A stretch of 64,000 bases of DNA, from IMG/VR virus record IMGVR_UViG_3300025644_000002. One strand, given 5' to 3'. This DNA comes from a virus (lineage: Duplodnaviria > Heunggongvirae > Uroviricota > Caudoviricetes). The notes beneath the pieces were generated by a model, which worked only from the letters and a program-made list of their open reading frames with translations, was not told where the DNA came from and made no database searches. Of this stretch, positions 9,382 to 58,740 are shown piece after piece. The position numbers and the translations under genes were made by a program. Position 1 is the stretch's first letter. Every line of letters starts with the position of its first letter.

Positions 9382-10104
9382 TTAGTCTTCGTAACAGTCT
9401 AATATCTCTCGTATCAAGCCGTGCCTAACAATATCCTCCCTGGTAAAGTTTGCAGTAGTAATATCTTTTATTTTGGATAGACGTGCCATGGCGTCTTCTA
9501 AACCGCTGATATCATCCTTATCACTTTGCTTTGGATCTCCAGTTATAATCATTTTAGAATCTCTTCCTAATCTAGTTAAAAAGGTCTTCATAGCTGTACA
9601 AGAGGAATTCTGGGATTCGTCATATAAAACTACTTTGTTTTCAAATTCCATACCTCTTAAAAAAGCTGGTACCACAATATTAATAATACCAGTGGTTTCC
9701 AAAATATCTGTTATTTGTTTCCCAATTATTTTTTCAAACTTTTGCCAATATGGGTTCATAAAAGGATCAGTTTTCTCTTTCATACCCCCCTTTAATCATC
9801 CGAATTTTTCATTATCTACGCAAATTAAAGGTTTACAAATTACTATTCCATCGACAGGAGATTCTTTATCTGCTAATTGTTTTAAAGCGAAGTGCACTGA
9901 TAAATGAGTCTTACCTGTACCTGCAGGACCTTTTGAGAAAATTATTGTTTTCTTCTCCATAGCTTTATAAAATTTTTCCTGAGCTTTAGTTAAAAATTTC
10001 AAATCCCCTAATTTTACAGGAGAAGATTTTGAAGAAAAAAATAAATGGTGCAATTGTCGTAATGCTTGGTGTTTATTACTACAGTCTTGAGAGTTGTGTT
10101 GCAT
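9382..10104 (-). CDS. phoH: PhoH-family ATPase, 240 aa (one in-frame TGA at 9796)
   Basis: GPAGTGKT, FLRGMEF, YDESQN, TRLG...IITGDPKQSD; TGA falls at the aromatic position of the GEKLG-F-LPG motif (EKFG-W-LKGG). Confidence 0.88.
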
Positions 10105-10113
10105 TGAGCCTCC

Positions 10114-10605
10114 TTAGAAACGTTGTCCGGGAGTCTTATATGTATATATTGGAGCTTCCGAATCTTTCGCTAAGCGTGTTTTAGTTAATCGTTTTTTGGT
10201 AAGTCCCGGAACCTCTTTTTTTATTTTTGGTATATCTATAATTGTAGGTTTCGGCTGTTTGATCGGAGGAACTACCTTTGGTTCAGAGGCAGTTTCTAAA
10301 TTATCTTTATATTCTGGATGTATTTTTAGATAGGTTTGGTATTCATTTTTAGGTACAAGTTCGTAAAACACATTAGGTAGCTCTTTAGCATGACCTAATC
10401 GTTCTACCTCAGGCCAACCTTCTCCAGCACTAACTAATTTTATAGTACCAATATTGTACCCCCATTGTTTATTAGGGTGGTGGGATATAAGGGCGCAAGG
10501 CTCCTCATTTGAAATTAATATAATACGGCCATCTAAGGCCTCAGCATTAAATTCATATTGTCGTCAAACGACTATAGGGTTATCTGCCTTTTTAAAAAAG
10601 GGCAT
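10114..10605 (-). CDS. Hypothetical protein, 163 aa (one TGA at 10564)
   Basis: ATG directly after RNAP stop; frame runs into the track ORF 10114..10371 if TGA=Trp. Confidence 0.55.
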
Positions 10606-10608
10606 TTA

Positions 10609-13600
10609 TTAAAAGAATTCCCCCTTTTGATAATTAGTGTTTTTACCAAAGTTATCTCCATAAATGAACGCTGGTACAGGGTCTTTACCTCGAATGTTAG
10701 CTCATAAGCCTTTTGCAGCTCCTACAGTTAAGCCCCGTTTTACTCTGTTCGCACTAACTCTAGTTAACCAATCGTCGCTATCAGCATTTAATGAGTCTAT
10801 TGATTTAAAATATGCGTCATATTCGATTAATGGAAGTTTTTCTTTTTTTCTATCTTTGTTTAGAGCGTTTAAATAACTTATAGTAGTTCTATCTCCTCTT
10901 AGGAATCCGCTACCCTCAGGAGCTACTGTAATTTGGGCATTATCACTAATTCCACGAATTACGGTTTCAAATGTTTTATTAAAGAATTTTCCCCCATAAA
11001 CTTTTGAAGCTTCTTCTACTAAATACTTCTGAGCTGATAAGTGATCCTTTAATTCTCCAAGTTCCTGAGGTTTTATAATTCCATCAGATATGGCGTCTCC
11101 AATTCCTATTTTAACTCCTTCTGTTACAATAGGCAGTCTACCGGAAGGTATAGTAAAGGTTTTATCATTCTTTTCCCCATAACCCTCTATCCTAACGGAG
11201 TACCCTCCAGTAAGATTTTTCTTAATAGATTTTATAGTCCCCTTTACAGTAGATAACGTAGCTTTTCCACTTAATTTTTGAGGTACAAAAAATAATTGTT
11301 TTAAACGTGGGAAACCAGTTACAGCACCACCACCACCGCCACCTAAGGCAGTTCCCCCTGTATGGAAAGTTTGCATAACTAATTGTGTAGATCTTTCGGT
11401 AATGGCCTGTCCGTCTAATACTCCTACCGCTTCTCCTAATACAGATAATTTTCCATTAGGCATTAACCCATAACAGGCTTGACAAATCCCTTCAACTGCT
11501 TCGCAAGTTAATGGCGATCTAACCCATAGAGTTTTTAATTTATCCTTTTTAGCTCTTAATAAAACATTTGAATCTACAATGTCATTTCTTTTCCCCACAC
11601 CCGATACAGAGTTAAGTAACATGCGATCTATAACATTCTTGTCATTTACGCCAATTTCTAAACCTTTACGAGTATTACAATCTTCTACAGTTATTAACAA
11701 ACGTCTATTAATGTTTAATAACGCTTTGTTTAAAGCACCAGATTGCTCTGTATTTACGGACCTGTCAATATTACCTTTACGAACTCCATATAAGGACGCA
11801 AAATAAGAAGGGGTATCTAAACCCTCTCCATACGATTTTAACACAGGATAGGGGATAGGACGGCCTTTGGTGTCCATTAGAACCCCAGGCATAGATAAAA
11901 TTTGTCGTACAGAATCAGTTTTACCAAATGAGCCTGAATCCAACATGTCGTAGATGTTATTTCTACCCCGTACACTTTTATCCTGAGCTTTTTGAACTTC
12001 TATAGTTAATTTGTTTAAAGAGTCAATTCTAGTCTGCCCTTTTAATTTATTAATTGCAGGAAGTTTTTCTTTTAAAAGATCATCTCTATAGGCTCTATCT
12101 ATTACAAAGTCATTTAATGATAAGGTATTGCCATGTAAAGTGGCCTGCATAGCTCCTAAAGATTTCCAAGAATTAATTACATCTGTAAAATAATTAGGGT
12201 AAGTAGTTGCGATAGTGGTTAAAAGTTTTTCAGACACTTTAGCAGTTAATACTCGTTCGTAATCCCTTAATTTTTCAGGTAATTCAGAATTAATATAAAA
12301 CTGCCCTATAGTCACTTTTGTACCGTTAAGATCAAACTGAGTAGTCCATGGAATTTTGGCTTTTTTAGCGTCAGAAATAGATTTAAAAGATTCTTTAGAT
12401 TTTTCTTTAATAAGACTTAGCTGGTGTATTCCAAAAACATATTCTTTACTAATCTCTGGAACAATAGAGTTATCTCCATGCTTAAATAAGATCTTGCTAG
12501 GCATCATGTTTTTAGCTTCCTCTACAGATTCAGCAGAAACAGGTACCATTACAGACATAGTATCGCCGTCAAAATCAGCGTTGAAACCTCTCATAACAAG
12601 AGGATTCATTCTAATAGATTTACCATCTACTAATTGAGGTTTAAAAGCTTGAACTCCATGCTTATGAAGTGTAGGAGCTCTGTTCATAATTACGGGTCTA
12701 CGTTTCATTTCATCAACGAGAGCTGATTTTGCTAAATCAGTTTCATCTTTGTATTCCCTTACTGCGGCTGTAGCTTTTAATCCAAATTCCTTTAAATTCT
12801 TTATAATAAAAGGTTTATAAATAGAATAAGCTATTTTAAATGGAGTACCTACCTCATTTAGACCTAAATCGGGGTCAACAATGATAGTACTTCGAGCACT
12901 TAAGTCTTGACGCTTGCCCCAGGATTTTCCTTGTATTAAGCCTTTTTTACTTTCTCCTATTTCTTCTAAAATCCCTTTATACTTTTCACCGCCATAGGTT
13001 ATAGGTTCTATAAAACCTTGCATAGCTCTTACAGAATCATACAATGATCTATTAGCTCTTAAAACCTCATCTGCGCCTATAATATCTTTAGTACTTTTTA
13101 AAGCTGTGTTTATAACCCCAATATCTCTATAATGTTTATTGATATCGCTAGTCATTAAATCACCAGTAGGTAAAGAATAGATAGGTCTAAATTTAGGAGG
13201 TAATATTGGTATTTTAGTAATAGTATAGGCTTCTTTTGGGTTTAATTTCATTCTACTTAAATTTTGTAGATACCTAACCTTAGTATTTAAACTATTCACC
13301 GAGGATACAGGGGCAGTTTTTAAAGCTGCTGTAGCCTTAACAAGCTCAGCGTCAACATCATAGGCTTCTAAAGCAGAGATAATAGCCGGAATTCCAGACT
13401 TACCTTTTAGCTTTAATTTCCCATCTATAATGTCGCTATATTTCTTGTCAGTAATACCTAATATTTTAGTAATTGCAGGAGCAAACATAGGATTAGGTAA
13501 ATTAGTTGCTAAATTAATATGAGACCATAACGTGCCGCTAATTCCACCAGTAATCTTTTCATCGAATAATCCACCGGCTCTAGTCATTAAATTTTTACCA

Positions 13601-16600
13601 ACTAACATAGTTCCTGGCTTTTCTAATGCGCCATTAGACAGCTTAGTAACATCTTTGTCAGTTAATGGTAAAATTTGTAGTTTATTACCTTTTTTAGTAA
13701 CATTAACACCTAGACCTTGAATATAGGTTGTTAGCTTTTCAAATACAAAGTTTCTAGAAGGCTTACTAGGCGGCAGTCCCAATTGTAGGTCTCTTCAGTA
13801 TTCATCGTTAGACCTTCCTTTAATCTCTCCAATATCTCGTAAATTGGCTTTTGCTCCGTGGGCCAGATATGCATAATTATCTAAAATCCCTACATGCTGT
13901 GAACCCTTTCCTACAGGCTGTTCGTCTATATCATATTGGCCGATACCATGAGCCCCTAATTTTTTGTTGACTATATGTCGAAGTTTGAAAAAATACTGTT
14001 GTCCTACAAAAATTTGATTATCAAAAGCTTTGCCAGTTTTACCATCTGTTAAAGTTTCATCAGGTTCTATACCAAGTTCTTTCATTTCTGCTAAAACTTC
14101 TGCAGATCTGTCACCTTCTGGATTATTAAAATTCTTAACAATATAAGGTTTACCAGTTTTTTTAGCAATTTTACCAGCTGCCGTCTCTAAAATTTGACCA
14201 ATGTTCATACGAGAAGGAACTCCATGAGCATTTAACATTATGTCAATAGGGGTACCATCCTCTCTATGAGGGGCATCTGCGTCTGGAATAATTTTAGTAA
14301 CAATAGATTTATTACCATAACGCCCAGAAAGTTTATCACCTTCTTTAAAAGGATGGGTAGATTTAACATAAATATCTATGTTTCTACCAGTCTTAACTAC
14401 ATCAGTTACCACTCCCGGCTCATCTTCAGACCATTCAGTTAAATTTTTATTAAATTGTCCAAAAGTATATTTACTTAATTTATGTAAAGCTACCTCATGG
14501 TCGTCCATTTCACGCTTAACTAAAAATGCAATTAATACATCTTCTGGATTAACTGTTTCTCCTACCTTAATAATACCAGAGCTATCTAATTTTTTTCTAT
14601 TATCTGGGGTTATAGCGTCTGGGTACCAGGCACTAAATTTTTCTAAACTAAATGCAGATAATTTAGGAGTAAAAAATACATTTACTTTATGGAGCATAGA
14701 ATGAGAAAGTTTATTAGCAGCTGATTCTGTAATTACAGCGCCATCTTCATAATTATAACCCTTATAAGTCATATAGGCTGTAGTTAAATTTTTTCCTATA
14801 GACAGGGTATCTCCACTGGAATAATTATTTTCAGCTAATATAGTTTTACTATTAACCTCATCTCCCACGTTTACTAAAGGAGTAGAATCTAAATAACCAT
14901 CTTGATTTAATGGGAAATTGTTATATAAACCTTTTTTAGTTTTAGATCCATCTTTTCCAATGATATAAATATAATCTTTAGTAATTTTACTAACTGTTCC
15001 AGTACGAGGTTTCCCTTTTAAATTAGGTCCGTATACTGGATTAAGAAAATTACCAAGAATCTTTTCATAAGTAGAATCTTTATCTCTATAGGTTTGTACT
15101 AAAGGAGCTTCTTTATTATCTAAAGCCATAGCTTGAGTCATCATACGAGCACCAGTAGCACTTCTATTACCCTGAACTGCGTCTAAAAATGGAATAGCAT
15201 TAGCGGCAAAAGAAAACATTGATCTTGGAGACCTTATATAATAATTAGCCTTACTTGGGGCAATACGTATAAGTTCACCCTTATACATTGCGTGTATTGA
15301 CTTAAATTTAGGAGTAATAGTAGAGCCAGATATTTCATATTGATCTGGGTACACTACATAACTTTCAAAGAATTCTAAAGGACTAATATATACTAGTTTA
15401 CCAGAAGTATTATATACTGGAGATTTCAGCTCATTACCTTCTTTAACAACCTCAGAGGTCATTCCTAAAGTTACTCCAATTTTTGAACCTTCTGGAGAAG
15501 CTGTAGAGTCTATAAACCCTAAGTGTGTAGGCTGTACATCCCTAGTTTCTTCAGTAATTGAGTGCTTACTTTTTATTCCACCAGTACCCATAGGAGAGGT
15601 TTTTCTTCATTCGGATACAATAGCTACAGGATTTGTTTGTGGAGGAGTTGAGCTTAAATCGCCAGTAGTAAAAAATAGTTTAATAGGTTTTGAAAAAGTA
15701 CCAGCACTTACTATTTCTCGTACTTGATCTTTGAACATCATAGATGATCGTAATTTTTTAGTAAGAGAGTCTTTTTGTTTATCAAAATGATTAATAAGTA
15801 AGTCATCTACTGATAAAATTTGTTTAAAAACTAAACTATCTCTGTCATCTGGTTCTGCTGTACCTTTATTAATATCTAATAATTTCTTAGAAGAGTCTAG
15901 TAAAGCTTGTCCATTAACATTAGAGTGTTTTCGACCCAAAGTTAAGAGGGTAGTGTTGGGGTCTACTTTAGTGAAGTTTTCAAAATAGTCTTTTAATTTG
16001 GTAAGAACTTCTGAGTAGTCTTTAGGATCTCTATGATAAATTTTAGTGAAAATAGAAGTCATTTCAGAAATTTCTGTGTTGAGAGCATTCTTCTTATTAA
16101 CTTCTAATAGTTTGGTACCCCAAACCTTACGCATAGCCTCATCGCCTACACCTAATAAATTTAATAAAGTTCAGAGTCTATATTTTCTATTATCGAAAAT
16201 AACTACAAATTTTTCAGAAATAGGATCTAATTGCATTTTAAAATTAAGACCTTTTTCTAAATTGAATTCATTTTCTAACTCACCATTCTTCTTAATACGA
16301 GCATATATACCCGGCTTTCTTCGAAGTTGATTAACGGTTTGGTATTCATTTCCTTCAATAATAGTAGTAAACCTATTTGTTAATTTAGGGATATTTCCTA
16401 TCTTAGCATTCTTTTTTTGGTTAATAACTTTTCCAGTGCTATCTTTTAAAAGTATATCAGCGTATAAAGGTATTTGTCAGCTACGCCTATTGATTTTTAA
16501 CTCTTTCTGTTTAGGGAAATCGTCAGAACTAAGATTGTCAACTATTTTTAAATTAGCTATTTCTAGAGTTCTATCACCGGCGGTGACTGGAAAAACGTTA

Positions 16601-16668
16601 TTTATAGACTTTAGGATAGCCTGTTGGATATTTGAGTTCTGTTTGTTGTAATTTAATAAATCTGCCAT
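10609..16668 (-). CDS. rpoBC: Fused beta/beta-prime multisubunit-type RNA polymerase, 2019 aa (5 in-frame TGA)
   Basis: Track ORFs 16477..16668, 15607..16134, 13795..15591, 10702..13782 share one frame and are separated only by TGA (16477, 16171, 15607, 13795, 10702); motifs NQLRRKPG, RDVQPTHLG, GDKLSGRYGNK, RAPTLH, NADFDGD, TQLVMQTFHTGG. Confidence 0.9.
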
Positions 16669-17150: not shown

Positions 17151-17412
17151 GGACGGGGCCTGTGTACATTTAAATACTAAATTTATAACAAAAATAGATA
17201 TTGCAGTGAAAAAGAATGCATTTAATATGGTTTATACTATATTTTATACATTTCATAGCAATGTTCCAGAATTAAAAATTATACATTTAGGACTTACCCC
17301 CTCCAGTATGATAACAGAAAATGATTTACTAGAAGTTCTTAGTAAGTATTGTGTATCTCTTGAAGAGGACGCAGACGCTTTATTAAGGCAATATAATCTT
17401 TTTAACAAATGA
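17080..17412 (+). CDS. Hypothetical protein translationally coupled to RT (candidate retron partner)
   Basis: ATGA overlap with RT start; ends in TGA. Confidence 0.6.
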   Translation: MKTTKQLKIQMMEKISPHLPNLTKDGACVHLNTKFITKIDIAVKKNAFNMVYTIFYTFHSNVPELKIIHLGLTPSSMITENDLLEVLSKYCVSLEEDADALLRQYNLFNK

Positions 17413-18299
17413 CAATTTACGAATTAATAGAAACACCAAAAACTGAAATAGAACAATTAGTAACTACTAAAATAAAGCAGTATAGAAGGTTCCCGATTAC
17501 AAAAAAGTCTGGAAAATTAAGGTGGCTTAATGAGCCGTCTGAGGCTTTAAAACAAGTTCAAACAAAGTTTTTAAATAATTTCTTATATAAATTTAAGACC
17601 CACCCGATAGCGGTAGGGTTTAGACGTAATATCAGCGTAAAAGAAGGTGCTAAACGACATTTTGGAAATAAGACTTTATTAAATATAGATTTAAGAGGTT
17701 TTTTCGATTCTGTAACAGCTAGCATGGTTTTACCTGAAATGATTAAGAGGCTTCATAGTTATAATAACCAACACACCCTTGAATGGGATGAAGCAGACGC
17801 AAGACTACTTACGTCTTTAATTACGCTAAATGGGGCATTACCGCAAGGATCTCCTACGAGTCCGGCTATGGCTAATTTAGTATGTTACAAAATGGATATA
17901 GATTTACAAGACTTTGCAAAACAAAATAAACTAATAGTTACTAGATACGCTGACGATATTAGTTTTAGTCATCTCTCCAAACGCTATCCGCTTTTGGATC
18001 ATATAATAGAAATTACCAAAATGGTACAAAAATATCATTTTAAACTAAATTACAAAAAGACTAGAATTATGAGGCCGCATAGACGGATGTCAGTAACTGG
18101 AATCGTAATAAACGACAAATACGGTATTCCAAAATATAAACGAAAAATATTTAGAGCTATTTTACATCAAAAACGAAACGTCGACATAACAGAAAGGGAA
18201 TACCAGCAATTAAGAGGTTATGCCGAATGGATTAGATTTTTAAATCCTGAACAAGGGCAAAAATTTATAGATGAAATAGCTAAAATGAATGTAGTATGA
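17409..18299 (+). CDS. Retron-type reverse transcriptase, 296 aa
   Basis: IDLRGFFDSV, LPQGSPTSP, RYADDI, region-X-like EGAKRH and region-Y VTG motif; no maturase or nuclease extension. Confidence 0.92.
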   Translation: MTIYELIETPKTEIEQLVTTKIKQYRRFPITKKSGKLRWLNEPSEALKQVQTKFLNNFLYKFKTHPIAVGFRRNISVKEGAKRHFGNKTLLNIDLRGFFDSVTASMVLPEMIKRLHSYNNQHTLEWDEADARLLTSLITLNGALPQGSPTSPAMANLVCYKMDIDLQDFAKQNKLIVTRYADDISFSHLSKRYPLLDHIIEITKMVQKYHFKLNYKKTRIMRPHRRMSVTGIVINDKYGIPKYKRKIFRAILHQKRNVDITEREYQQLRGYAEWIRFLNPEQGQKFIDEIAKMNVV

Positions 18300-26896: not shown

Positions 26897-26908
26897 AAAA
26901 AAGACCCT

Positions 26909-27109
26909 CTATTCGAGGGCCTCATCTATTACTGAATCAAAATATCAAATTGTGATAATAGGCTTACCAAATTTATCGTAAGTAAACTCAGTGAATCTAT
27001 CTTCCACTAAGTAACGAGGGTTATTTATAATATCCTCGTATTCAGCCTTTTCAGACTCATAGTTAAGGCGAAAAGTGCCTACTTTTTTCTTTCCAAAAAA
27101 ACTAACCAT
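26909..27109 (-). CDS. Small hypothetical protein, 66 aa (one TGA at 26945)
   Basis: MVSFFGKK...FGKPIITI-W-YFD; TAATG-type coupling. Confidence 0.5.
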
Positions 27110-42365: not shown

Positions 42366-42376
42366 TATTTACTCCT

Positions 42377-43939: not shown

Positions 43940-43951
43940 GTTATTTCTCCA

Positions 43952-44839: not shown

Positions 44840-46503
44840 TACCCAACTACTCCAGTTACATTTTCAGGAAGAACTCCTGTAGAATAAACATTTTTAAAAT
44901 TAAAGATAGATCCAATTCCATTTGTACTTGTTGTTCTAACATCAAATTCAGTTATTTGACCTTCTTTTGTTAAAATTCCAGAAACAACGGTAGGGCTTTG
45001 TATATAATCATGTAAAGCGATACCCGAACATAAAATATCAAATTTAGATAATGAATCTCCAATGCCTACCTTTAATACTAAGTTTTCAGTAATTTCGTAA
45101 GTCCTTTCATCAGTAACAACATAGTTATAACCCCCACTATTCGTAACATTAGTTACTATACAAGCTTCATAGGTAAATGGTAGGCCTGATAGAAGTTCAA
45201 AAGCCTGTGTTAAGTTAGTTACTGTAGGTTGTTTTTTTAAGTATGCAGCGTAAGCAAATGCCCAATTTTTTAAATGAACTGCATAGTCTCTTCGTTGTTC
45301 AAAGTAAGTTAAGCCGCCACTGTAGTATCCGCTTGTAAAAGGTTGGTAGTATCCAGAAACAATTAGAGATTCTGGATCAGTAGATAGGCCAAAAGCTGGA
45401 AAATAAATTGAAGTTAAAGATGGTAATAAAAGTAAGCCGCTGACAGAAAAGAATTCATCTCCTCAAACAGTTGGCGTTTTATTATCATCCATAACTAATT
45501 CATTAGTTAGAGAATTCACTATCGAAATAGAATTTCCTCCAGTATAATAAATAGTATCAGGAGTAGCAGTTACTGGTGTAAATTCAATTGTACCATCAGT
45601 TGTACCAGTCACTAATTCTCCAGAAGCTCCGGAAATGGTAAAAGTTGAAGTAGTATCGTCAACTACAAAAGCATAGCGTAACCCTCTAACTAAAGTCAAG
45701 GGTTTATTTTTACCAGAATTAAGAAGTCAAGATAGATTTGTTTGTTGCTCAATATTAAATGTTTGTGTATGGAACGGTTTTAAAAACTTAATTTTATGTA
45801 ATTTATCAATTTCATAATCGCTCCCCTCTACAAGAGTTTGGCCAGAACCTATACCACTAATAGTGGGAATAGTTAAGAAAATTTTGTTCTCCGGTAATGC
45901 ATACCAATATGTATTTTTTGCAGTATTTGAACTCCTACTTATTTTAGATCCAGGAGTAGTTCCAACATCAGAGTAGCTTAGTCCTGACACAGTAGCAAGT
46001 AATCCAAAAGTGCTTCCAATAACCCTACCATAAACATTATAGAAATCAGCTCCAGTAACAGCGCTTCAACTAACAGTATTTGGATTAGTTACCAAATTGC
46101 TCCCACCACTAATAGCTAAAGCCGGAGATGCCCCTAAAGTTTCTCCTACACCATTTAAAGAGCTCACTACATAAGCATAAGTATTCCCACTTATTACGGG
46201 AGCTTGAGGGGAAGCAGAAATTCCTGTAGGAGCGGATAAGTAACCATACTCTGTATTTGCGCCCAAACCGTCTAAAGTTATTTGGTAAGTTTGATAAGAC
46301 TCCTCCAGGTATCCTAAAGTATACTCTAAATATTTTGTTAACTCAGTTTGATATAAATTATAAAATACACCTTCCATCCCATTAACAAGTGCTTCCCAAT
46401 AATTTTCTATTATAGTTTTGGAAGATGCGTCTACCAAATTATAAAAAGTTCCTAAGTTATTTCATATTTGAGAAGCTTCTATATTAGATTCTGGATTGAA
46501 CAT
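44839..46503 (-). CDS. Baseplate-associated structural protein, 554 aa (4 TGA)
   Basis: Joined frame; FN3-like TVS-W-SAVTGADFYNVY with TGA at the Trp. Confidence 0.7.
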
Positions 46504-49500
46504 TATATTTGAGAAACTCCAGATAGATAGGTTAAATTCGTATAAAATCTACCGACATTTAAAGAAGAAATTGTAAAGGTTTGTTCAACTCTCGTAGTAA
46601 CTTTAGCCATTAAAGGATCATACTCCTGAGCATCTATTGTCATATTTAAATTAACAAATGTTGCCCCATTAGTATATAATACATTTACTAGGTCTGACTT
46701 ATCAAAAGTGGTAGAAGTAAGTTCATTAAAATAATCTCTTATTTTTAATTTCATTTCTGTTTCAGCTAATCCACCTGAATACTCTAATTTAGTAATATCA
46801 ATTATGGTTGGCGGCATTACTTTAATAGATTGATCTGCTACGGGGTAAACTCTATCAGCGCTTGTAAAATAAGCATCTACCGTATCCCCTTTTGCCCAAT
46901 ATCTATAAACTACTTCAAGAATAGTTCCTGCCATTCCTTCTAAACTAAAATTAATAGTGTAACTACTATTCTTAGAGTAAGTTGTACCAGTATTATTATT
47001 TACTATAGAGTAGCTGCTTGTGTCAAAGGCAACTTGTGAAATAAATTCTCTTACTTCTATAATTTCTTGAATATAATTATGGGTGCCAGTTAAGGATTGT
47101 AAATGTAAGGAGTTTTCCGACATAGTGGCTACAACAGAACCTTCTACAATATTTGAAGGATCGTGAACATAGATATCCATAGCATTTCCTCGATGAAAAG
47201 CCTCAGCTACTATATTATTAGCCTCAACATAATAACTTCTTAGGGTGTGTTCGGTGTCGTTTGGAAAACTAGTTCCAGTATTTACTGCAGCAGCTGCTAT
47301 ATTAGTATATCCATCACTATCTAAATAGTTAGATAAAGGATTTAAAGTTTTAGTAAGTTTGCCTAAAGTTTTACTAACTTCTACTTGGGCAGGGGTATAG
47401 GTATGGGTACCTAAAGTTTCTCAAACTGCGTCTACCACATTATAAACTCTTGCCTCAACTTTAGAATGTCCAGTATTACTATCTATACCGTATTGTACAG
47501 CGTCATAACCTGCACCATAATAATTTATTTCACACTGATTAGCTGAATTAAAATCAGCAGAAGGTAATTTAAATTTAAATAGATGCATTGGAAAAGTTTC
47601 TTCAAAAGATTTTACTATTAAAGTGTCTACATACCATTCATAATTCATAGTTTGGGCTACAGAAATTCCAAAATGTCCCCTAGTACTAACTATCGTACCT
47701 ATCCCAGTTTCTGTAGTTTGTAATTCTCCTGAGGTAGGTATATAAGGTGGGTAAGTAGTACCTCTATCAATAACTTTATGGGTGTCTACATTATATACAT
47801 CAGACTCGTCATCTCAGACCCAACCTTCAAATCCCAGTTTAGCGTAAACTTTAAGTTTAAAACCATACCTAATGTTAGGTTCTATCCACACTTTTGCAGC
47901 TTGTAAGAATTGGTTCATACCATTAGTTTGGTCTCAAAGTTGGTCACTACCAATCCACACTTCTTCCTGTAATATATCATTATCAACTAAGAATACATTA
48001 TATTTTCAATAAGTATTAGGGATTCCAGTACCGCCAGCTGAAACAGCTCAAGTGGATAATAAGCTAGTTTGGAATTCTTCTTCGAAACGAGCAGCATCTG
48101 TAGTATATTGGGTAGTTCCTCCTGGGTAAGTATAGGAAGCATTAATTAAATTAGTATGTAATCTAATTAAAAACTCAGGTTGTTTTCTCCAAGCTAACCC
48201 ATAACCATCTTGTGGTTTAAATATTTTAGAATTTCTTAATACAGTAATATAAGCCATTTCCCCATTTTCAGTTGCATCAGTAGTTTCCATGGTACAGCTT
48301 ATTTCTATACCGGTATGCTGGTCAATTTCTTTACTAAAGATAGGGGATACGCTATTAAAATTAATTGCGTCTACTAATGTTGTATAGTTTTCTGCCGCGA
48401 TGTTAAAATCAGTTAAAGTTAGAGCATTAGAGAATTGTGTATAAATAGATTGTAATTCGGATAAAGCTAAGGCTACGTCGCTATTATTGGTTAAATCCGT
48501 ATTATCTAAAGTTTTACCCAAGCGTAGGCGTTGGTTGGCTATATCAATTCCAAATTCGTCTAAGTAATAAGGATCTTGGCTAGGACTAATGCCATCATGA
48601 AATTCTCATAAACCCGAAGCGGCTAACATATTTAGAGAGGGTTGTTGATTTATAGGATCTGCATCACCAAATAATTCGTTGACTAGTACATAAGTAGAGC
48701 CTTCAGCATAAAGAGCGTCAGTAAGTTTATAAATTCCTGTATAAAAATCATTAGAAAATTCTCTTGATCAGGATGCTGGAGTAGGAAAGTCAATAGCTTC
48801 GGTTTCGTTTATATCTTGAAATGCCCCAGTGTAAGCCACATGAGGTTTATCATAACCTGAGTGCATTCCTGAGTGAACTAAAAAATAGTCTTCTGAAGAA
48901 AAACTCGTAACATTAGCAATACTAGTAGTTAAATCCCGAATCATTCTAAAATGCCCAGCGCCTACAACCTCTACAGCTATTGCAGTAGTTACTAAATTTT
49001 TAATTTGAGTTTCAATAGCAGCCGAAGAAGCTAAAGATAAATTAGCTATTTCATTTTTAATACGTGCATAAAAAGCTGTATTTGTTTCTTTATCAGTACC
49101 GCCAATAAAGACTGCTGTATTTACAATTTTAATTGGAGTGATAGCTGAAGATGCTAAAGTAAAAGTTGTATTAGGCTCTTCTTGATATTCTGAACCAGCT
49201 ATTTTAGCAATAACCGGAATAAGCCCACTGTCATAGTTTGGGTAGTCTCCAGTATTTAATTCCATTTGAAGTTTAGTAACACTAAAATCAGATACAACTT
49301 CAAACTGTCTACCAGAAGCGCTAGTCAAAACGGTCCCCTGGCCTAAATTTATAGACCTAGGTGCAGAAAAATACATTTTTACATAACCAGTAGCTTTACT
49401 CCCAGTAATTCTTTCTAATAAAAAATTAGCGGCTGTAGCGTCTAATTGGGATTCTTCTAAAATACTTAAATCAGTTACATTATAAGTATTAAGAACCGCA

Positions 49501-49643
49501 TTATGTTCCGCCTCATATTGCTCTATAATAGGAACTAGCGGATTTATAAAGAAATCTCTAAATACACTTCCAGGTCGCGTGTCTATAGTAGGATCTAAGA
49601 TTCTTACTTTTTCTATAATATAATTTTTAATGTCAATAGCCAT
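46503..49643 (-). CDS. Baseplate J-like protein, 1046 aa (multiple TGA)
   Basis: IDTRPGSVFRD, ATGYVKMYF, GGTDKETN..FYARI; four track ORFs in one frame linked by TGA. Confidence 0.8.
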
Positions 49644-49656
49644 AATTTTTTTTATC

Positions 49657-50097
49657 CTAAGGTATGCTTAATGAAAATGAAGAATTATTTAATGTAAATA
49701 CTCGTAGGGAGACTAACCATCCGCCAAAAGTGTCGTCATATGCGACCGACTCCATTATGATGTTTTCTAAGTATTCTCCGTCAGGTATTGTGATTCCTTC
49801 TAAAATTTCAGATTCTTGTTCGTCTCTTAATTGTTCTACCATTGTTTCCAAATATATAGGAAAAATATTTTCAATTTCTTTTATTCTAGTAGTAGACGTA
49901 ACTTGGAATAAATTAGCAAAAGAACTTCCGATAGTTGAATCATAAACATTAGAGCCTTTAGCTGTTAAAATTTTCTTAACAATTCTTTGTATTAAGTTGT
50001 CTCTACCGATTACTGGATTTAATACAGAACTAATGGTAAATGAGACAGAGCTGCTAGTTTCTGAAAAATTTACTAATTTTATATCTCTTAAACTCAC
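49657..50097 (-). CDS. gp25-like baseplate wedge protein
   Basis: GRDNLIQRIVKKILTAKGSNVYDSTIGS; adjacent to baseplate J. Confidence 0.7.
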   Translation of the reverse strand: MSLRDIKLVNFSETSSSVSFTISSVLNPVIGRDNLIQRIVKKILTAKGSNVYDSTIGSSFANLFQVTSTTRIKEIENIFPIYLETMVEQLRDEQESEILEGITIPDGEYLENIIMESVAYDDTFGGWLVSLRVFTLNNSSFSLSIP

Positions 50098-50098
50098 C

Positions 50099-52162
50099 TT
50101 AACTAACCTCGTTAACTTCTTCAGTATGTATTTTTAGGGCAGCGTATAACATATCTTTTGTGTCTATTAATTGTTTAAAAACCATATTTTTGTATTTTTC
50201 TATTCCCTTAAATTTAGCTATCTCTTCGTCAGACATACTAATACCTAAAAATCCAGCTCAGTTTTCTAAAAACTTAGTAGATACTACGCCATCTTTATTT
50301 ATTAGACAATTTGCTAATTTAACTCCTTCAGTGATGAGAGCTCCAGTGTCTAGAATTTCAGCTAAATCTGAAAGATTTCCGTCTCTTAGCTTTGCTATAA
50401 CTCCATTATTTAATAAATCACTTTCTAAACTCTGAATTACAGTTTCTAAATACTGCTGTATAGCACTAAACCCTTCTATACTTTCTACAGTCCTTGTAAA
50501 TATATTACATAATTCGGCTTCCTGTCTATCTAATACTTGCTGTTCGCTCAAAGCTACCCTAGCGGCCTGAACTCCTGCAATAGTTTGGGTAGAGTTATGA
50601 ATAAGCCCTAAAACATCAAAAGATAGAGGTCCTAAGTATTTTTGAGCAATCTCAAAAGCAACATCTCCAGGTTCAGTATTCTCGTGCTTATTATTAATAT
50701 AAGTTTTTAACGACTCTAATGCAATACCTGCTTGTTCAAAATCATATTGAATTGTAAAAGGATTAATACCTCATTTACGTTCAAAAAAAGAATTCTCACC
50801 CGTAAGCACAGCTAGTCCGGCATCAACAGAAGAAATTTGAGACACTCATTTAAACTTTACTTGCCCATGAGTGCTAGAGTGAAGACTAGCAGCCTTTTTT
50901 GTAGCAATCATGTCAGATTCAACATCCCTTAGTTGTCTAAGAGCTGGGTCAAGTAGTGTTTTTCCAAGATTAGAGCTATCTTGTATAAAATCTCAATAAC
51001 TAGGAAAAGCCAAAATAGCAGCTTCAGCTCCCTGCCCTAATACCATCAGTTGTTTTCAGGTAGTTTTATTTGTAGCTGGGTCAGAAAAAACACTTGAAGC
51101 TGTCCTCGTAATATCAGATGCTATAAAATCCTTTCACTCACTAGAACGAAGTGGGTGTAATAACTTCCTAAGACGCTTCCTAGATCAACTACTAAGACTG
51201 AGCACTATAGGAAACTTTTCAACTAATATGTTTGTTGAATTTGAAACAACTGTATATAATGATAATGTTCTTAATACCTCTGGAAATAGTCTTAAAAGTT
51301 TGGCAGAAAATTCTTTAAAATCATCAGAGGGTTTCCCATTTTCATCAAAAAATTTATCCTTTACGCTAGAACTAAGACTATTAAAATAAGATATTCAATT
51401 GTTTAACCACTCTCCAGTAGCTATAGCAGCGTCTGGATTGGTTAGTAAGGGTTTTTCTAATCCATACTCATTATGAAGATCTTCAACTTCTCGTAAAATG
51501 GCACTATATTGCTCACTTGTAAGATCGTCGATAGCGTTTTGAAGTTCTAATCTGGCAACCTTAATATTATCAATATTAATATTAACTTGTTCAGCATTTT
51601 TATTTAATTGTTTGCCCCTTTCTATTCCCACTATTCTTTCAGCAATTTGTATATGTCGTAGACTTTTAGCAATGTTAGCAAAAAAGTCCGGAGTAGTAGC
51701 TCCCGCATTTAATCCTTGTAACGCTTTTACAAATTCTAAAATAATATCTAACTCAGTTAATAAGGCTTTTGCAAACTCATCACGTATTCGTAGCTGGGTT
51801 TCTAAAGTCTGTGCCGCCCAGTATAATAAAACAATCTCAGTACTTGGTACAAATGTTAAAAGCAAAGATGTTGCTCCCGCCCAAGAACTTAAGAAATCCC
51901 CATGTAGTAAATTAGAAAACAATGAATTTTTTAAAGCTCCTCAACTAGCCCCTCCAAAATCCTCTAAGAGGGCTCCTATAGTTATTACGAAATTACCACC
52001 TAACTTAGATGCAATTAAATTAATAGCTTCTTGAGTATCTTGCCCTAATTGCTCAGTAGCTTCTTGTAGCTTATCTGCGATTGCTGATGAGTTACAAGTA
52101 TCTCCCGAAATGCCAAGAGCACTTAATGAATCATTTAATCCTAATTTAGTAATTATACTCAT
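50099..52162 (-). CDS. Large helical hypothetical protein, 687 aa (about 9 TGA)
   Basis: Three track ORFs in one frame; only TGA interrupts. Confidence 0.65.
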
Positions 52163-52878
52163 TATATGATACTATCTAAAGTAGTAGCTAATTCTTCCTT
52201 TCGTTTTTTTAAGTTAGCAGCGCTTAGTTTTAATTCTTTTTGAATATCTTTATTTCTTAAGATGCCCTGACCACCTATACCAAAAGTATATTCTAATATT
52301 TTTTTATCTATAGGATCAGCATCAAAGTATGTAAATTCCAACGCTTCTTTTGATTTATTAAAACTGCCAGGTTTAGCATGAAAATAAAAGCCACCTATAT
52401 CCTCTTTATCCTCTGGTAAAGAAATAGATAAATCCTTCCTAAGCTCTGTTTGTAGTCTTTCGATTTCAACTGGAGGCAAATTCATAGCATCCGCCAACTC
52501 TGTAATAGTAGGCTCTCTACCTTTATCAGCTTCTAAATTATCAAAAATAGCATTATACTTTCCTATAATTAAGGCTCTAGGTTCTGGTATATGTCCAACA
52601 TTTTGATAATTAGTAACAAATCTACTTAATTTCTTTAATCAATTAGTTACATGAGTATTTAACTGAGCTTTGCTAGGATCATATGTGTTTAAAGAGTCGC
52701 TAGCTAGCCTATGAGCCTCTAACTCAATAGCCATTGGCGGAAGTCCCGAATTAGTAAATTTGTTCGCCTGACCCCTAATTAGAGGCTTAAGGGAGGTTAA
52801 TAATTTAGTTCTAGCTTCATTGTCGCCAGATCTATATTGATTAAATAATTCTAATTCTTTTTGTTTTAAAGTAGTCAT
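52162..52878 (-). CDS. Sigma-70-like transcription factor, 238 aa (TGA at conserved region 2.3 Trp, 52639)
   Basis: GDNEARTKLL, YDPSKAQLNTHVTN-W-LKK (cf. FDPxKGxKFSTYATWWIRQ), HIPEP, GREPTITELA. Confidence 0.82.
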
Positions 52879-53996
52879 TATGATAATAGGTTTTGTATTT
52901 TAAAAGTTGTTAATCTATTTTTTATTTCTAAAATAGTTAATAGAGAAAGTTGAAAATTTAAAAATTCATTCTCATCAATTGTCGCAGTACTAAATGCTCC
53001 AGTAGAGTATTTTCCTAAATCTTGAAAAAATGAGTCTATCTGATCTCAACCACCCGGAAATTGCGTACTCAATACAGCTGACACATTGGAAATGCCGGCA
53101 GATAGCTTATTTTTATAATCATCTTGTAAAGCTTTTATATTTTCTGAAACCTTCGCATAAAAATTTAAGGACGTTAGATCCTCTAAGTGGTTTTGTAGAG
53201 AAGCTGACGGTATATGATCTAAATCAGGCAGTGACTCTAAACTAACATCGTATTCTTTTAATATAAGTAATTTATTTGTTTTATCCAGTACACTATTTAT
53301 ATTATTTAAGTAAGCTTGATCTACGCTTGCGTCTACTGTTGTGTACAGTGTTTTTAAGTTATCATCCGTAACTATACTAGGAAAGGTCAAGGTGTGTTTT
53401 AAGACTATTCAGCTCATAGAAAAGCTAGCTACCTTATCTTGTGCAGCGTTATAACCGCCTCTAAAATTTAAAGGATACCCCCAAATAGTATGATTCATTA
53501 TTTTCATAATGGCTATACTGTTATTTTGAACTAATTTAGTACCGCGCAATATATCATCATACATTTTTATTAAACTACTTTGATGAAAATGTTCCCAAGC
53601 CCTCCCACTTTCACTTGCGTAATCTATAGCTGTTCCTGCAAAATTATAGATTCTTATTGAATCCCCAAAAAATGAAATAGCTGGTGAATCAAAAGTTTCA
53701 TTTAATTGCGCCTTCTCTTTATATGTAAAATTAAGGGAATGAAGGAAAAATTTATTAGAACGATGAGTTACTTCTCCAGGGTCTTTAGAGTATACCATAA
53801 GCACTGCTCCAACGTCAGTCATATTTTCTATTTCTTCAGCTAAGTTATTAGGTGAAGTTTTTTCTACACCCAAATCTGGAAGAAGAGTTCCTAATAGTTG
53901 GTTTCCTACGTTTAAAAATGGAGAAATAAGGTTATTTACACTTCCTTTAATTTCATCTTGTATAGCGTTTATAGCTCGTGATACGTGATCTGTCAT
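52878..53996 (-). CDS. Tail tube/baseplate-associated protein, 372 aa (2 TGA)
   Basis: Joins 53409..53996 and 53046..53390; TAATG coupling at both ends. Confidence 0.6.
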
Positions 53997-54007
53997 TACT
54001 GTGCTCC

Positions 54008-56311
54008 TTAGACAACCTCAGACTTTAATGTAGTTTTAAAAGCCTCTATTACTTGAGCGTATCTAGTAATATTGTAAGGTAAAAACATATCTGAAGTAGT
54101 TTTCCTTAACTCTGCTTCTACTCATTCTTTTGTAGACTTTGATTGAGAAAATTTGGTACTAACCTCCTCTTCAGACTTTACCATTAAAAGCCCCCTTAAA
54201 TTATTGGCCTTATCAAGTAAAGTTGCAGGGTCTTTATAATCTTTTTTATTACCAGTGTTGCTAACGTTTAAGTATGTTAAATAAGAATTCTTATCTATTA
54301 AATCTCTTCAAGTAATTTTATCAGTAAATTTTTGAAGATTAGTTTTAGAGTGTCTAGCTTGTATATATAAACTCTTTATTTTTTGAATGGCTAAATACAT
54401 ATATTTAGTATAGGTTACAGACAAAGAATCATCTTCCTTTATTAATTCATTTGATTTTAATAAATTATCGGGAGTAGAATAGTCTCGTAAAAAATGAAGA
54501 ATGGAGTGGTCAACTCTAGAAGTAGTCTTCATGCTTTCTAAGTTAGCGTTATAATTAACAAACGGAGGATTATTGACAAATGGAGGACTAGCAGGAGCTC
54601 CGGCTTTAGATAAATCTAAAAATTTACCCCTTTTTGAGCCTTTACCAAATAATAAATAACTATAAGTATCCATTCCTATTTTATCAAAGTTATAGAGGTC
54701 TTCATTATATAAACGATTATTAATGGGTAAATAGGGGTCGCTGGTAAAATTATTAATAATAAATTTATTAAAAGTATTAATGGAAGTTGATGTGGAAGAA
54801 AAGGGCCCATCTAATTCTTCATCATATAGTACTCTAGCGTTTCTCAAATTAATTTTGCTAAATATAGATTTAGGAGTGATGGAGGTTATTATTGAGTGTA
54901 TAACTCCCGTCACAGATGGAGCTCCTATATCAAAAATTAAGGCAGGAACTCCTATCATTCTGTGGGGGTTCCACTCACTTTGTAAACTGCAAGATTTACC
55001 CATAGATTTTTTTCTTGAAAATTCATGTACTGAAAAATCATGTAAAGCTGTTAAAAAAGGAGAGTCTTCTGTAAATGCGGGAGAAGCTTCTTGGCCAATT
55101 AGAGTAAAAATTAAATCCCCATTTATTTGAAACAATTCACTACGAACCCCCCTATATAGCTCTTCCTCTGTAAATCCAGAGTCTACTCCATGTAGCTCAT
55201 CTTTAAAAATTGGAGTATTTGAGGGCACTACGGTGTGAGGTAAATAAGTAGTTAGAGGACCAGCTACGCCCTCATATTTTCCTAAAGGAGTAGTGCTAGT
55301 GCCTGTAAGCCTGGTAGGTATTGATTGGTAATTAATGTCTAAATTAAGAGAATCTAATTGATTAGGAAAAAATACGTTACAAAGTGCAGGAGGGGAATTA
55401 TCTAAATCCGGTAATAAATACATTCTTGTAGGAACTTGACTAGCGTTTGTAGTATAAAATGAATATGAATTTGTAAAGGCTGCAGGGTATAACATTCTAT
55501 AAAATAAAAGATTATAAAATTGAGAAATAATGGACGATAATCCAATAGGCGGCGACTCAATAATACTCATATTAGGGGTACCCATCATTTTTTTCATTAA
55601 ATCTAATTTATTTGCATTAATTTTTTCAGGGTTTGGAAAAGCAAATATAGATTCACTTATTCTAAAAGATTGTGCATTAAGCCCATATAATACGTCGAAT
55701 ACTTCAAAATAAGTACTAAGCGTATGAGTTAATTTTATAAAATTACCAGTTTTTACATTGTCATCATTATTGATGGCTTGCCATAAAAGTCCTCAAATTT
55801 TAAATATATCTAATTTAATACTATTTACGTCGTCAACAGTAATATCTAAAACTTCTTCGGTTTTTTTTAAAACATTTAATTTATAATTAGAAGATTCTGT
55901 ATTTAAATTCTCGGGCTTTATGATATAAGCTTTTGCTGATGCTGTTTTATTTATATAACGATCACTTACTAGCGAAGTAGGGGAGTAGACGGAGGTTTTA
56001 AACAAACCAGCTAAAAGGCTTTGGCATTTGATTGTTACATCTCTACCCACTGGGGTTTTCCTATAACTTTTGCTTTGAATATCCCCTTCAAATAACAATA
56101 CTAATTTCTCTGTAGTACCATTAGAACTTGGACCAAACACTTGTACAATAGTTCCTGGCAAGACCTTTAAAGCCCCAGAGTCTAGTGGGAAGGACATGTT
56201 AGCCGACGGCAGACCTCCTTCCACTTCATTAATGGATATCGAAGAAAATGGAACTTTAATTCCTTCTAGATATAGTTCAAAACTAGATAAATTTCTAACA
56301 GTTTCTTGCAT
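54008..56311 (-). CDS. Baseplate hub-like tail protein, 767 aa (3 TGA)
   Basis: FELYLEGIKVPFSSISINE N-terminus, PALCNVFFP; follows tape measure. Confidence 0.6.
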
Positions 56312-56313
56312 TA

Positions 56314-58740
56314 TTATCCAGATTTCCCATTAGAGTTTAGGTCTTTATTAGAAACTAATGCTGAAATATTAAGGTCGATATTCAGTAAGGCTGTAGTACT
56401 CTTTTTTGTCATTTCTTCCATAGTGTTCCCCATTACAGATAAGTCATTTGCAAATTTTTCATCATTGTTCATAGACTCTCTACGTTTTTCCAATTGTGTT
56501 ACAAGTGTAGTAGGTAGTTGGTCATAATATTGCTGTATTAATTTATCTGTACTATATAACTCATTGACGGTACTGGCAACTTCTTGTCTTGAAAGTTTGT
56601 CTTCTAAATTTATTTCTATATTATCTATAGATCCTCCGCCTTTAATAGAATCATATCTTTCTTTCGTACGTAGCATTACTCCAAAAGCAGCTTTTTCAAA
56701 ATCATCTGGAAATATCTCAGCCATAGCAGCTGTATCAGAAGCTTTAAGTGAAATCATAACTTTATATAGTTCTATATCTTTTTCAGCTAATTTCTCTTCC
56801 TCTGTAAGAATAACTTTTTCACTAAAGACAGCTCTTGCATTCCTTTCTTGTTGAGGAGTTTGAAATAACAGATTACTTCTAGCTATACTCCCTGAAGCTC
56901 TATCTTTTTTTTCTTGTAAGGCTAGACGTCTAACAGATACCCCCTCCATAATCGTTGTAGCATTGTCTAAACGTTCTTCAAGATCTTCTTCCGTCATAGA
57001 TCTGGCCTCTGAACTTGGCCTGAATACTTCATATCCTTTTAAAGAAGTTATTGTATCTTCCATAGCATCAGAAAACTTTGAAGCGCCTTCAGCAAGAAAA
57101 TTACCAACAGCTTTAAAGGGTACTGCTAGCACTCCTGGAGTTTGGGTTACAAATTTATATAAAGCTGTTTCAGTATCTGAGTTTGATTTAATTACTTCAG
57201 TTAAGGCGTCACCCCCACTAAGTATATTAGATTCTTTTGCAAAAGGAAGTTGAAGTAGCATACGTTCAACATCCTGTACCGGGATACCCTGTTGTCTGCT
57301 AATTATACCTATTGTTGATTCAAGGTCTGGAGATCCCATAGCGTCAGCTAAAGTTATACCGGGAGCAAGGGCTCCTAACGATAATTCAAAAGATTTTCTG
57401 TCATTCATATTAGCAGATTGATTGGCAGAAGCTCTAAAAAAGTTAAAGGGGTCATTCATATTAGATCCAATAGCCCCATATAATTCATTAGTATTTAAAA
57501 TTAAGGGTTGCCCTGACGTATTTCCTAAAGTTTGTAAAAAAGCATGGGGTCCACCAGTATATCCCATAAGCTGCTGTTGCATTTTATTAGCTACTGCTCC
57601 TACACCCCCGTAATCTGTTATTAATTCGCTTCCTAAATTAGTTTTAAGAAGTTGGTTGGCGTATCCAGTTAAATCTCCAGCAAGAGAAGCTCCCATTTGT
57701 TGAGAAAGTCCAGTCCCTATGGCCATGTCAGCCCCAGTTAACATAGTTTGAGCAAAGGCTCCACCGCTCATTCCAGCTAATCTAGCTCCGCCAGCCATTC
57801 TTGCAGAATAAGTTCCCATATCGGCAGTACCGACAATCCCCCTTTGTTCTAATTCAGCCATAATTTGGACAGCTTCTTCTTGGAAAGTACCTAAAGCGTG
57901 AGCTACTGTTCTTACGTTGTCTAATAAACCTTTTACAGTTTCTTGAAATCCCTGAGCATCATGTACGTTAGAAAAGCCTCCAGCTTCTCCAAAGTCTAAA
58001 ACATTTGATTGTAGTTCTTCAAGAGAGTACCCTTTTCCTCTAAATTCTGATCCGGAAACCCTATCTACTAAATCTCCAGCTATGTCTCTAGCAGCATTTC
58101 TAGATAGATTTATTCCAGAATATTTTCCCAATTCTTGAAAGCCTTTAGCCATATTATCTCGGGTAGTTATGTCACTGCCAAACACATTAGCGGTCATGTC
58201 CAACATAAGTCCAGTTGACATCCCAGCTATTGCTGGAATAATACCTCCAAATCCTAAAGAGGATCCTAAAGTAGTATATGTGAAATTCCCACTATAGTCC
58301 CCAACACGTTCTGCTAGACCCTCTAATGATCTTTGTTTGAAATCACCATGAGTTATGGGTTGTGTGGGGTCATATCCAAATCCTAAAGAACCTTTCAGTT
58401 CACCTCATGCAGTATTAGGTATTGTGGCCCCCCAAGGGACGTCAGGCATTTGAAAAGAAGGGGCTTGGTTAGGTGGGGAGATTACATTTCGTATACTACT
58501 GACATCTTGCTTAAACTGGTCAAATCCGAGCGACATGTTAGAAGCTTGATTTGCAAAAGTTTCTCAAGCTCTATTAAAAAATCCAGGACCTTCGCTATCC
58601 ATGTTACCAATATTTGGAATTGTGGGGCTAGCGAATGCCTGCCCAATAGTCGCATCTATTTGGTTTCGTACATTAGATAATTGCGACGCTAAATCGGTCT
58701 CATCTAATTTTACTTTATAGGTTACTTCTTGTTCAGCCAT
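56314..58740 (-). CDS. Tape measure-like protein, 808 aa (2 TGA near the N-terminus)
   Basis: Gly/Ala-rich helical sequence downstream of the chaperone pair; ATG at 58740. Confidence 0.65.

Follow-up and report, generated by a model that had tools for sequence, protein, structure and literature searches.

The phage whose DNA is analysed here appears to infect a bacterium using the standard genetic code and, in the course of infection, to make UGA code for Trp by means of a tRNA(UCA) of its own; a probability of roughly 0.8 is assigned to this reading. It is carried by Trp columns facing in-frame TGA codons in homologs, by a split between recoded and non-recoded modules, by TGA stops kept in early genes, and by the structure of the tRNA and its co-occurrence with recoding.

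Within the window (the whole stretch of 64,000 nucleotides that was analysed), 70 in-frame TGA codons are spread over 16 minus-strand genes, at 9382-16668 and 33916-58740. All 16 are terminated by TAA, with direct TAATG coupling in 4. An earlier note had described same-frame ORFs split by TGA, with true ends at TAA or TAG, often as TAATG; this description holds, as do the coordinates it gave for TGA in particular contexts (7 of 7). The comparison of coding density under different codes, which it had proposed, favours TGA: long-ORF coverage of the minus strand rises from 0.53 to 0.71 when TGA is read through (0.60 for TAG), and coding density of the genome from 0.62 to 0.77 (0.68 for TAG). Reassignment of TAG or TAA was rejected, the coverage gain being smaller or non-specific. 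Under code 11 the recoded genes fall into 86 pieces, 46 of them of at least 60 codons, close to the 40 or so fragments that had been foreseen. The recoded genes of the window contain 70 TGA and 47 TGG codons, versus 2 and 119 in plus-strand genes (p 1e-25). UGA recoding in these minus-strand genes is a confirmed observation.

The meaning of the recoded codon was evaluated on the columns aligned with it in homologs, as the earlier note had also suggested. Trp is the dominant residue, found in standard-code relatives at 87 of 171 TGA columns, with no column of Cys or Gly and only 4 of Ser; control columns of TGG codons (Trp in 334/529) resemble them. At locally conserved sites, Trp occupies 150/218 TGA columns vs 548/723 TGG columns. 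Among the closest homologs, four TGA columns of the RNA polymerase (RNAP) carry Trp in 36/36, 36/38, 31/41 and 33/41 sequences, and the fifth has Y in 31 and W in 6. Code 25, where UGA means Gly, fails this test. The meanings which the earlier note had named as refuting (Gly, Ser, Sec) do not emerge from the columns. The proposal that UGA stands for Trp is therefore supported by both the polymerase and the genome-wide columns, as far as sequence comparison can tell. The claim that TGA falls on expected Trp or aromatic sites stands for Trp columns overall, but two of its examples are weak, the PhoH site (9796-9798) being F or Y in homologs and the sigma factor column Y, R, N or S, with no Trp, in relatives. 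Identical columns carry TGA or TGG in independent relatives, and over 32700-52699 no letter differences were seen where contigs from four runs of three studies give coverage (contigs only; two of the runs are RNA libraries, which may contain DNA). The idea that the TGAs are assembly errors, pseudogenes or codons edited to UGG in the RNA is largely refuted by these two observations and retains a negligible probability.

The recoded minus-strand genes start with a PhoH-like protein of 240 aa (9382-10104), whose Pfam PhoH domain (residues 36-239) spans its single in-frame TGA. Next to it lie a conserved 163-aa protein (10114-10605; one in-frame TGA, with W at the site in G003, G004 and L021) and a fused beta-beta' RNAP of 2019 aa (10609-16668; five in-frame TGA), recognised by Pfam and by an NADFDGD motif at residue 1363. 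Five fibre or tail genes (33916-43939), assigned by TGA columns and families, include a collagen-like fibre of 1301 aa with 15 TGA (34797-38702); 14 of these 15 codons face TGA or TGG in the orthologue from G004. They are followed by a baseplate and tail module (43952-52162; PHROG 6, W columns in standard-code relatives) containing a baseplate wedge gene with 7 TGA (46503-49643), by a sigma factor of 238 aa with one TGA (52162-52878; Sigma70_r3, PHROG 351), and by three tail-module genes of 372, 767 and 808 aa (52878-58740), identified as recoded by their TGA columns.

Recoding follows the gene module and not the strand, contrary to the framing of the earlier note. A minus-strand block of 11 genes (27109-33840), although within the range given in that note, has 0 TGA vs 23 TGG (Fisher p 3e-8). 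By family assignment, it includes a holin (33242-33649; 0 TGA/5 TGG), an amidase endolysin (32302-32874; 0 TGA/4 TGG), a Volactin-family actin (29931-30911) and a portal-like gene (27308-29173). Preferential recoding of lysis genes, a typical but not universal trait of TGA-recoded phages, is thus not seen here. On the same strand, a promoter-like TTGATA-17-TATATT (33881-33909) lies upstream of this holin-tRNA-endolysin-portal block, and a terminator-like hairpin with a 9-bp stem and T run (26901-26923) closes it, both being consensus matches only. The motif gives no support to an early promoter for the tRNA block, since similar ones, again by consensus match only, also precede the RNAP and other recoded modules. 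Beyond the window, recoding extends to plus-strand genes (24 TGA/26 TGG), glycosyltransferases among them; the statement that Trp is always TGG in plus-strand genes is valid within the window, where TGA acts as a stop, and does not hold farther out.

Early genes still use TGA as a stop. The plus-strand reverse transcriptase (17409-18299) ends at TGA 18297-18299, its codon 297, and the alignment places the ends of 6/6 homologs at residues 286-296. The plus-strand TGAs examined sit at or near gene ends, often as ATGA overlaps, and in recoded relatives, too, the helicase gene and its plus-strand neighbours lack TGA; structural genes are the main site of recoding, early and replication genes being standard-compatible. 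Back-up stops after early TGA stops were discarded, as standard-code relatives do not have clearly longer tails. As a possible suppression context, a purine follows TGA in 80% of cases, vs 63% for TGG, but for three of four relatives the proportion lies close to the 66% baseline.

A host itself using code 4 (or code 25), merely followed by the phage, would require neither RF1 nor TrpRS from the latter, and neither TrpRS (PF00579) nor RF1 (PF00472) gave a Pfam match in G000, G003, G004, G008 and G009, in a search whose controls worked and which divergent forms may escape. Such a host is nevertheless very improbable: in a genome of 36% GC, the non-recoded plus-strand genes write about 330 Trp codons as TGG and contain no TGA inside them; the reverse transcriptase and other genes end at TGA where their homologs end; close relatives use the standard code; and, for code 25, Gly is missing from all TGA columns. 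A standard-code host, with a switch taking place during infection, is considered likely. As to the nature of this host, CCA-enzyme homologs are uninformative and a Bacteroidota-type promoter pattern shows no enrichment; the tmRNA tag begins with G, a feature reminiscent of Bacteroidota.

The likely UGA decoder is a tRNA(UCA) on the minus strand (32909-33005), between holin and endolysin inside the TGA-free unit, identified by ARAGORN, Rfam, synteny and covariation. It lies within the range of the earlier note, which had made no connection between this tRNA and the recoding. It is called tRNA-Sec by both ARAGORN and Rfam (RF01852, 48.5 bits, just above the gathering threshold). The predicted structure has a 7/5 branch with a tRNA-Trp-like acceptor stem (G1.U72, G2-C71, G3-C70, G73), an extended D stem, and a long variable arm; the loop of this arm, for which 8 nt fit better than 7 in this genome, contains U-CCA-A. 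Over 47 sequences, the 7-bp acceptor stem is 94% paired and the 5-bp T stem 100% paired, with G73 in 47 and U72 in 46, in agreement with the G73 and A1-U72-like first pairs of bacterial tRNA-Trp identity. Pairs of the variable arm stem form in 89-97% of cases, with 4-6 pair types, vs 12-55% when the stem is slid, and compensatory changes occur at 5/5 of them. When tRNAs were searched for without regard to the motif, UCCAA was found in 9/9 long-arm tRNAs with U72 and 0/19 with C72; an invariant loop on a freely covarying stem argues for selection on the loop. Plain short-arm tRNA(UCA) occur in other phages, so that the extra arm is no general requirement. No viral match was obtained with an exact 20-mer from the tRNA. 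RNA-library contigs cover the tRNA region, their depth providing no ranking of expression.

The program calls, the UCA anticodon, the long D stem and variable arm and G73 are all shared with bacterial tRNA-Sec, and would fit a decoder inserting Sec at UGA. In contrast to tRNA-Sec, the branch is 7/5 and not a 13-bp 8/5, U72 accompanies a Trp-like 3' end, and the variable arm carries a CCA loop; SelA had no Pfam match in four genomes (controls worked; divergent forms may escape), and UGA never falls on Cys columns. Rare 12-bp tRNA-Sec exist, and branch length alone is not decisive. Ser is another candidate, a long variable arm with G73 being also a SerRS determinant (PMC5389517), but Ser columns are few. 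Alternatively, the tRNA(UCA) could be unrelated to recoding, with Trp supplied by the near-cognate tRNA-Trp(CCA) which the phage also encodes. This tRNA is ordinary, its 5-bp stem and G24 leading to rejection of a Hirsh-type or short-stem form, and it is also found in standard-code G007. The UCA tRNA, for its part, occurs in step with recoding. Taken together, these Sec, Ser and near-cognate variants have little probability. In E. coli extract, 13/13 phage tRNA(UCA) tested inserted Trp (PMC12636597), and it is very likely that the tRNA(UCA) described here is the decoder and carries Trp.

A tRNA(UCA) occupies the same slot in all of the 11 relatives having one, being intron-split in 2 and missed by ARAGORN in G004; all 11, found by synteny, have U72, G73 and the UCCAA loop. 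Recoding is clear in 9 of them and likely in 2. The tRNA is missing from 9 informative standard-code relatives, in at least two to three separate clades; the 6 changes counted on a tree are an overstatement, since it took in five short contigs in which the slot is uncovered (L032, L033, L035, L037, L063). The five long recoded records, with a coverage gain of 0.12-0.27, all contain it, and it was not found in G002, G006 and G007 (0.02-0.03). One frame comparison of relatives was contaminated by antisense frames, and only gene-strand frames were used.

According to the proposed mechanism, tRNA(UCA), expressed from a TGA-free unit, would compete with host RF2 for UGA. Early and replication genes, with Trp only as TGG and some ending at TGA, would be set apart from virion, fibre, glycosylation, RNAP and sigma genes, which have about half of their Trp as TGA and would need read-through; by calculation, a yield of 10-20% full-length product from genes with 15-23 TGA calls for about 90% read-through at each codon. 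The tRNA would most likely be charged with Trp by host TrpRS, via G73 and the first acceptor pairs. E. coli TrpRS relies for identity on G73, the first three pairs and the CCA anticodon (PMC2965240), and the CCA loop conserved at the end of the extra arm probably substitutes for the CCA anticodon normally read by the enzyme, its role as a synthetase identity element being given an even chance. A bolder version, held tentatively, is that of a natural two-anticodon tRNA, in which the ribosome reads the UCA loop and host TrpRS the CCA loop, decoding being split from charging identity; as it would also gate phage RNAP and sigma, late transcription would be turned on by one tRNA. No paper on two-anticodon tRNAs or on marine opal recoding came up in literature searches.

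The tRNA(UCA) might also insert Trp with no timed switch, UGA being ambiguous throughout infection and TGA drifting into genes expressed after the tRNA; the CCA arm could then be a relic of anticodon-arm duplication, or act in processing, in modification or as an anti-nuclease decoy. Lysis genes are indeed ungated in this genome, and the recoded gene set varies among relatives: RNAP lacks TGA in G004 and L021, this phage alone has one in sigma, and portal and endolysin, unlike here, are recoded in G009 and G003. This account is rather unlikely, given that early genes are TGA-free in all recoded relatives examined and that the loop does not vary with its stem.

Recoding of UGA to Trp is already published for gut phages, which include Jade and Agate among those of Borges et al. 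(bioRxiv 10.1101/2021.08.26.457843) and the crAss-like phages (Yutin et al., PMC7886860; Zeta phage Lera, PMC12386605), and the comparison with code-4 late-gene recoding drawn in the earlier note was right. New are the marine RNAP-encoding lineage and the unrecoded lysis genes. In this jumbo-phage lineage standard gene calling breaks polymerase and tail genes, and lysis genes unprotected by recoding limit the model in which recoding prevents premature lysis. The tRNA(UCA) bears on a question raised by Borges et al. and Yutin et al.: by what route suppressor tRNAs are charged without a phage synthetase, and what explains the apparent lack of such tRNAs in many recoded phages. In the present case the tRNA goes under the label of tRNA-Sec, escapes ARAGORN (G004) or is intron-split. 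If the CCA loop were truly a synthetase identity element, it would represent a new principle of tRNA identity, useful for genetic-code expansion.

Among known systems, the tRNA-Sec-like look and long variable arm recall allo-tRNAs and SelC* tRNA-Cys, some of which are opal suppressors (Mukai et al., PMC5389517); the tRNAs of that work differ in having 8/4 or 9/3 branches and in carrying Ser, Ala or Cys, compared with 7/5 and Trp target columns here. By genes alone, the phage resembles the mReC clade of Caudovirales encoding multi-subunit RNAP (PMC7481178), being a large tailed phage with beta/beta' homologues and NADFDGD, an instance of the NADxDGD feature; unlike in mReC, the subunits are fused and TGA-interrupted, and the term 'genetic code' is absent from the text of that paper. 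The code-4 gut phages differ by lineage, the present one being marine with a fused beta-beta' RNAP, and by the genes involved: RNAP and sigma are recoded here and holin, endolysin and portal are not, while those papers stress recoded lysis genes. A Jade-type operon, with TrpRS and RF1 beside the suppressor tRNA, has no counterpart detected by Pfam, and the long arm with a CCA loop is not described in the passages searched in those papers. Shared with the same gut phages are TGA as Trp in structural genes with standard-compatible early and replication genes, a phage tRNA(UCA) and close standard-code relatives; as in Lera, there is a spare amber tRNA, and, as in Jade, the code-change element adjoins the lysis cassette.

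The virus record containing the window is 205,518 bases long, 97% complete and 36% GC, and is best represented in marine metagenomes. Besides 29 tRNAs and a tmRNA, it has genes for a fused beta-beta' RNA polymerase (RNAP), a sigma factor, and proteins of the baseplate and fibres. The earlier note had claimed that UGA is reassigned to tryptophan in the minus-strand modules (9382-58740), with true gene ends at TAA or TAG and about 40 fragments under standard-code annotation. The seven positions cited are all TGA codons. In the 16 genes of 9382-16668 and 33916-58740, 70 TGA and 47 TGG codons are found; every gene is closed by TAA, and code 11 splits them into 86 pieces, 46 of them of at least 60 codons. 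With TGA read through, the share of the minus strand covered by long ORFs rose from 0.53 to 0.71; with TAG read through it was 0.60. Sequence error or RNA editing is an unlikely source of the TGAs, since the sequence is identical, wherever covered within 32700-52699, in four runs drawn from three studies.

The residue was assessed by aligning TGA columns with homologs. In the RNAP (10609-16668, minus strand), four TGA columns hold Trp in 36 of 36, 36 of 38, 31 of 41 and 33 of 41 closest homologs, and the fifth holds Tyr or Trp; all 12 Trp-majority columns are TGA or TGG in the phage. Of the 339 homologs scored for this protein, many carry inteins; distant counterparts occur in Vibrio phages D181, D148 and D69 and Salmonella phage Arash. 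Genome-wide, by comparison with three standard-code relatives only, the 171 TGA columns contain W 87 times, Y 21, F 10, L 10, S 4, and G and C never, and TGG columns contain W in 334 of 529. At locally conserved sites, with recoded relatives added, W accounts for 69% at TGA and 76% at TGG. The column counts therefore rule out Gly, Sec and Ser. Two sites put forward as expected tryptophans turned out to be poor evidence, homologs having F/Y at the PhoH TGA and Y/R/N/S at the sigma TGA.

Recoding follows gene module; strand, the boundary that had been supposed, does not mark it. On the minus strand, the block 27109-33840, with genes for a holin, an amidase endolysin, an actin-like protein and a portal-like protein, contains 0 TGA and 23 TGG (p 3e-8). 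Outside the window, a block made up of glycosyltransferase and sugar genes on the plus strand has 24 TGA and 26 TGG. The minus-strand block is bounded upstream by a promoter-like site (33909-33881, minus) and downstream by a terminator-like hairpin (26923-26901, minus), both consensus matches only. In this phage, as in its relatives, many modules are preceded by a motif of the type TTGAC/TTGAT-17/18-TATATT, possibly a phage-sigma or host promoter; here it lies at 16767, 33909 and about 59590 (minus) and about 21100 (plus), among others. The actin-like protein (29931-30911, minus; Volactin family, Pfam PF25216, E 3e-70) lies between the endolysin and portal genes, with 52-75% identity across most relatives. 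In the remaining plus-strand blocks TGG occurs about 330 times, and those TGAs that were inspected sit at gene ends or close to them, frequently within ATGA overlaps. Plus-strand genes of the window include a glycosyltransferase with an intein (21144-23483, plus) and a TGA-free CCA-adding enzyme with an HD domain (62372-63856, plus). The reverse transcriptase (17409-18299, plus), kept adjoining the RNAP in relatives, ends in TGA at codon 297, where six of six homologs end; read-through would give 41 extra residues. That UGA carries two meanings in the same genome suggests a host with the standard code.

In recoded relatives, too, the helicase and adjoining plus-strand genes are TGA-free, and recoding is seen in the baseplate and tail genes. 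RNAP TGA counts vary among recoded genomes (5, 0, 3 and 4), the sigma TGA was found in the phage's own genome alone, and two relatives (G009 and G003) have recoded portal and endolysin genes; gating of either RNAP or lysis is thus no fixed trait of the lineage.

The candidate decoder is a tRNA with anticodon UCA (32909-33005, minus), between holin and endolysin, which ARAGORN and Rfam label tRNA-Sec. It has a 7/5 branch, G1.U72, G2-C71, G3-C70 and G73; its acceptor features resemble those of the phage's own tRNA-Trp(CCA) and those by which E. coli TrpRS identifies its tRNA (PMC2965240). Among relatives retrieved via neighbouring proteins, the same slot holds a tRNA(UCA) in 11 genomes, nine intact (own included) and two intron-split. 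ARAGORN missed one intact copy, that of the recoded relative G004 (L025:5886-5984), whose D and T loops are non-standard. The split genes are cut between U34 and C35 by group I-like introns of 597 (L039:7849-8445) and 621 bases (L058:7734-8354), each with a PD-(D/E)XK endonuclease ORF; the group I match in Rfam is weak (E 0.026), and in silico splicing regained the tRNA. Contig L039 has a second group I intron (17390-17652, minus; RF00028, E 2e-15). Recoding is absent in nine of nine informative relatives without tRNA(UCA), which make up at least two or three distinct groups in a tree of portal, actin and a 356-aa protein. Reading through TGA increases coverage by 0.12-0.27 in five long tRNA-bearing records versus 0.02-0.03 in three without the tRNA; contigs L040 and L058 have only a few TGAs at Trp columns. 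Pfam matching detected no TrpRS (PF00579) or RF1 (PF00472) in the phage's own genome and four relatives (G003, G004, G008 and G009), and no SelA in four genomes.

All 11 synteny-found tRNAs carry a long variable arm whose loop includes U-CCA-A, duplicating the tRNA-Trp anticodon loop. A motif scan of viral contigs gave at least dozens of perfect cloverleafs among the matches listed, and 13 of 14 matches in prokaryote assemblies (L282-L295; Bacteroidota, Bacillota, Coriobacteriia and others) were of the same two-arm type. In a scan for which the motif was no condition, U-CCA-A was found in nine of nine long-arm U72 tRNAs and in none of 19 long-arm C72 tRNAs. Within the arm, the four inner stem pairs under the closing pair form in 89-97% of 47 sequences and show 4-6 pair types, where a slid control gives 12-55%; overall covariation is 0.745 versus 0.20 when shuffled. 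Most of the 47 were chosen by motif, so that loop invariance rests on the 11 synteny-found tRNAs and the nine from the scan that did not demand the motif. The parts of the literature searched yielded no description of such a two-arm tRNA.

In the mechanism proposed, for which we infer timing, host and charging, the TGA-free unit would deliver tRNA(UCA) without need for suppression, and host TrpRS would charge it with Trp. The change of C34 to U would cost part of the TrpRS anticodon identity, which the CCA loop on the extra arm probably offsets. Trp-tRNA(UCA) would then compete with RF2 at UGA, so that the RNAP, the sigma factor and the tail, fibre and glycosylation proteins would be made at full length. 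In E. coli extract, 13 of 13 phage tRNA(UCA) assayed inserted Trp (PMC12636597). By computation, for a gene with 15-23 TGAs to give 10-20% full-length product, read-through at each TGA must reach about 90%; the analysis identified no RF2 antagonist. The phage tmRNA (6387-6758, plus; tag GRPAVKLAA) is a possible means of rescue for ribosomes that stall at UGA. A tmRNA also occurs in the recoded relatives G004 and G008, and none was found in the standard-code G002 and G007. Some 1,740-1,810 bases ahead of the window lies a tRNA with a CUA (amber) anticodon, and one is found in G004, though TAG has no systematic reassignment.

UGA recoding in this phage is real. A Jade-type operon and a Sec system were rejected as the identity of the system, and an allo-tRNA (PMC5389517) as that of tRNA(UCA). 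The system works like, and belongs with, those that Borges et al. (bioRxiv 10.1101/2021.08.26.457843) and Yutin et al. (PMC7886860) described in code-4 recoded phages. The present phage differs from these in habitat and lineage, in the recoding of its own RNAP and sigma factor, and in lysis genes that stay unrecoded.
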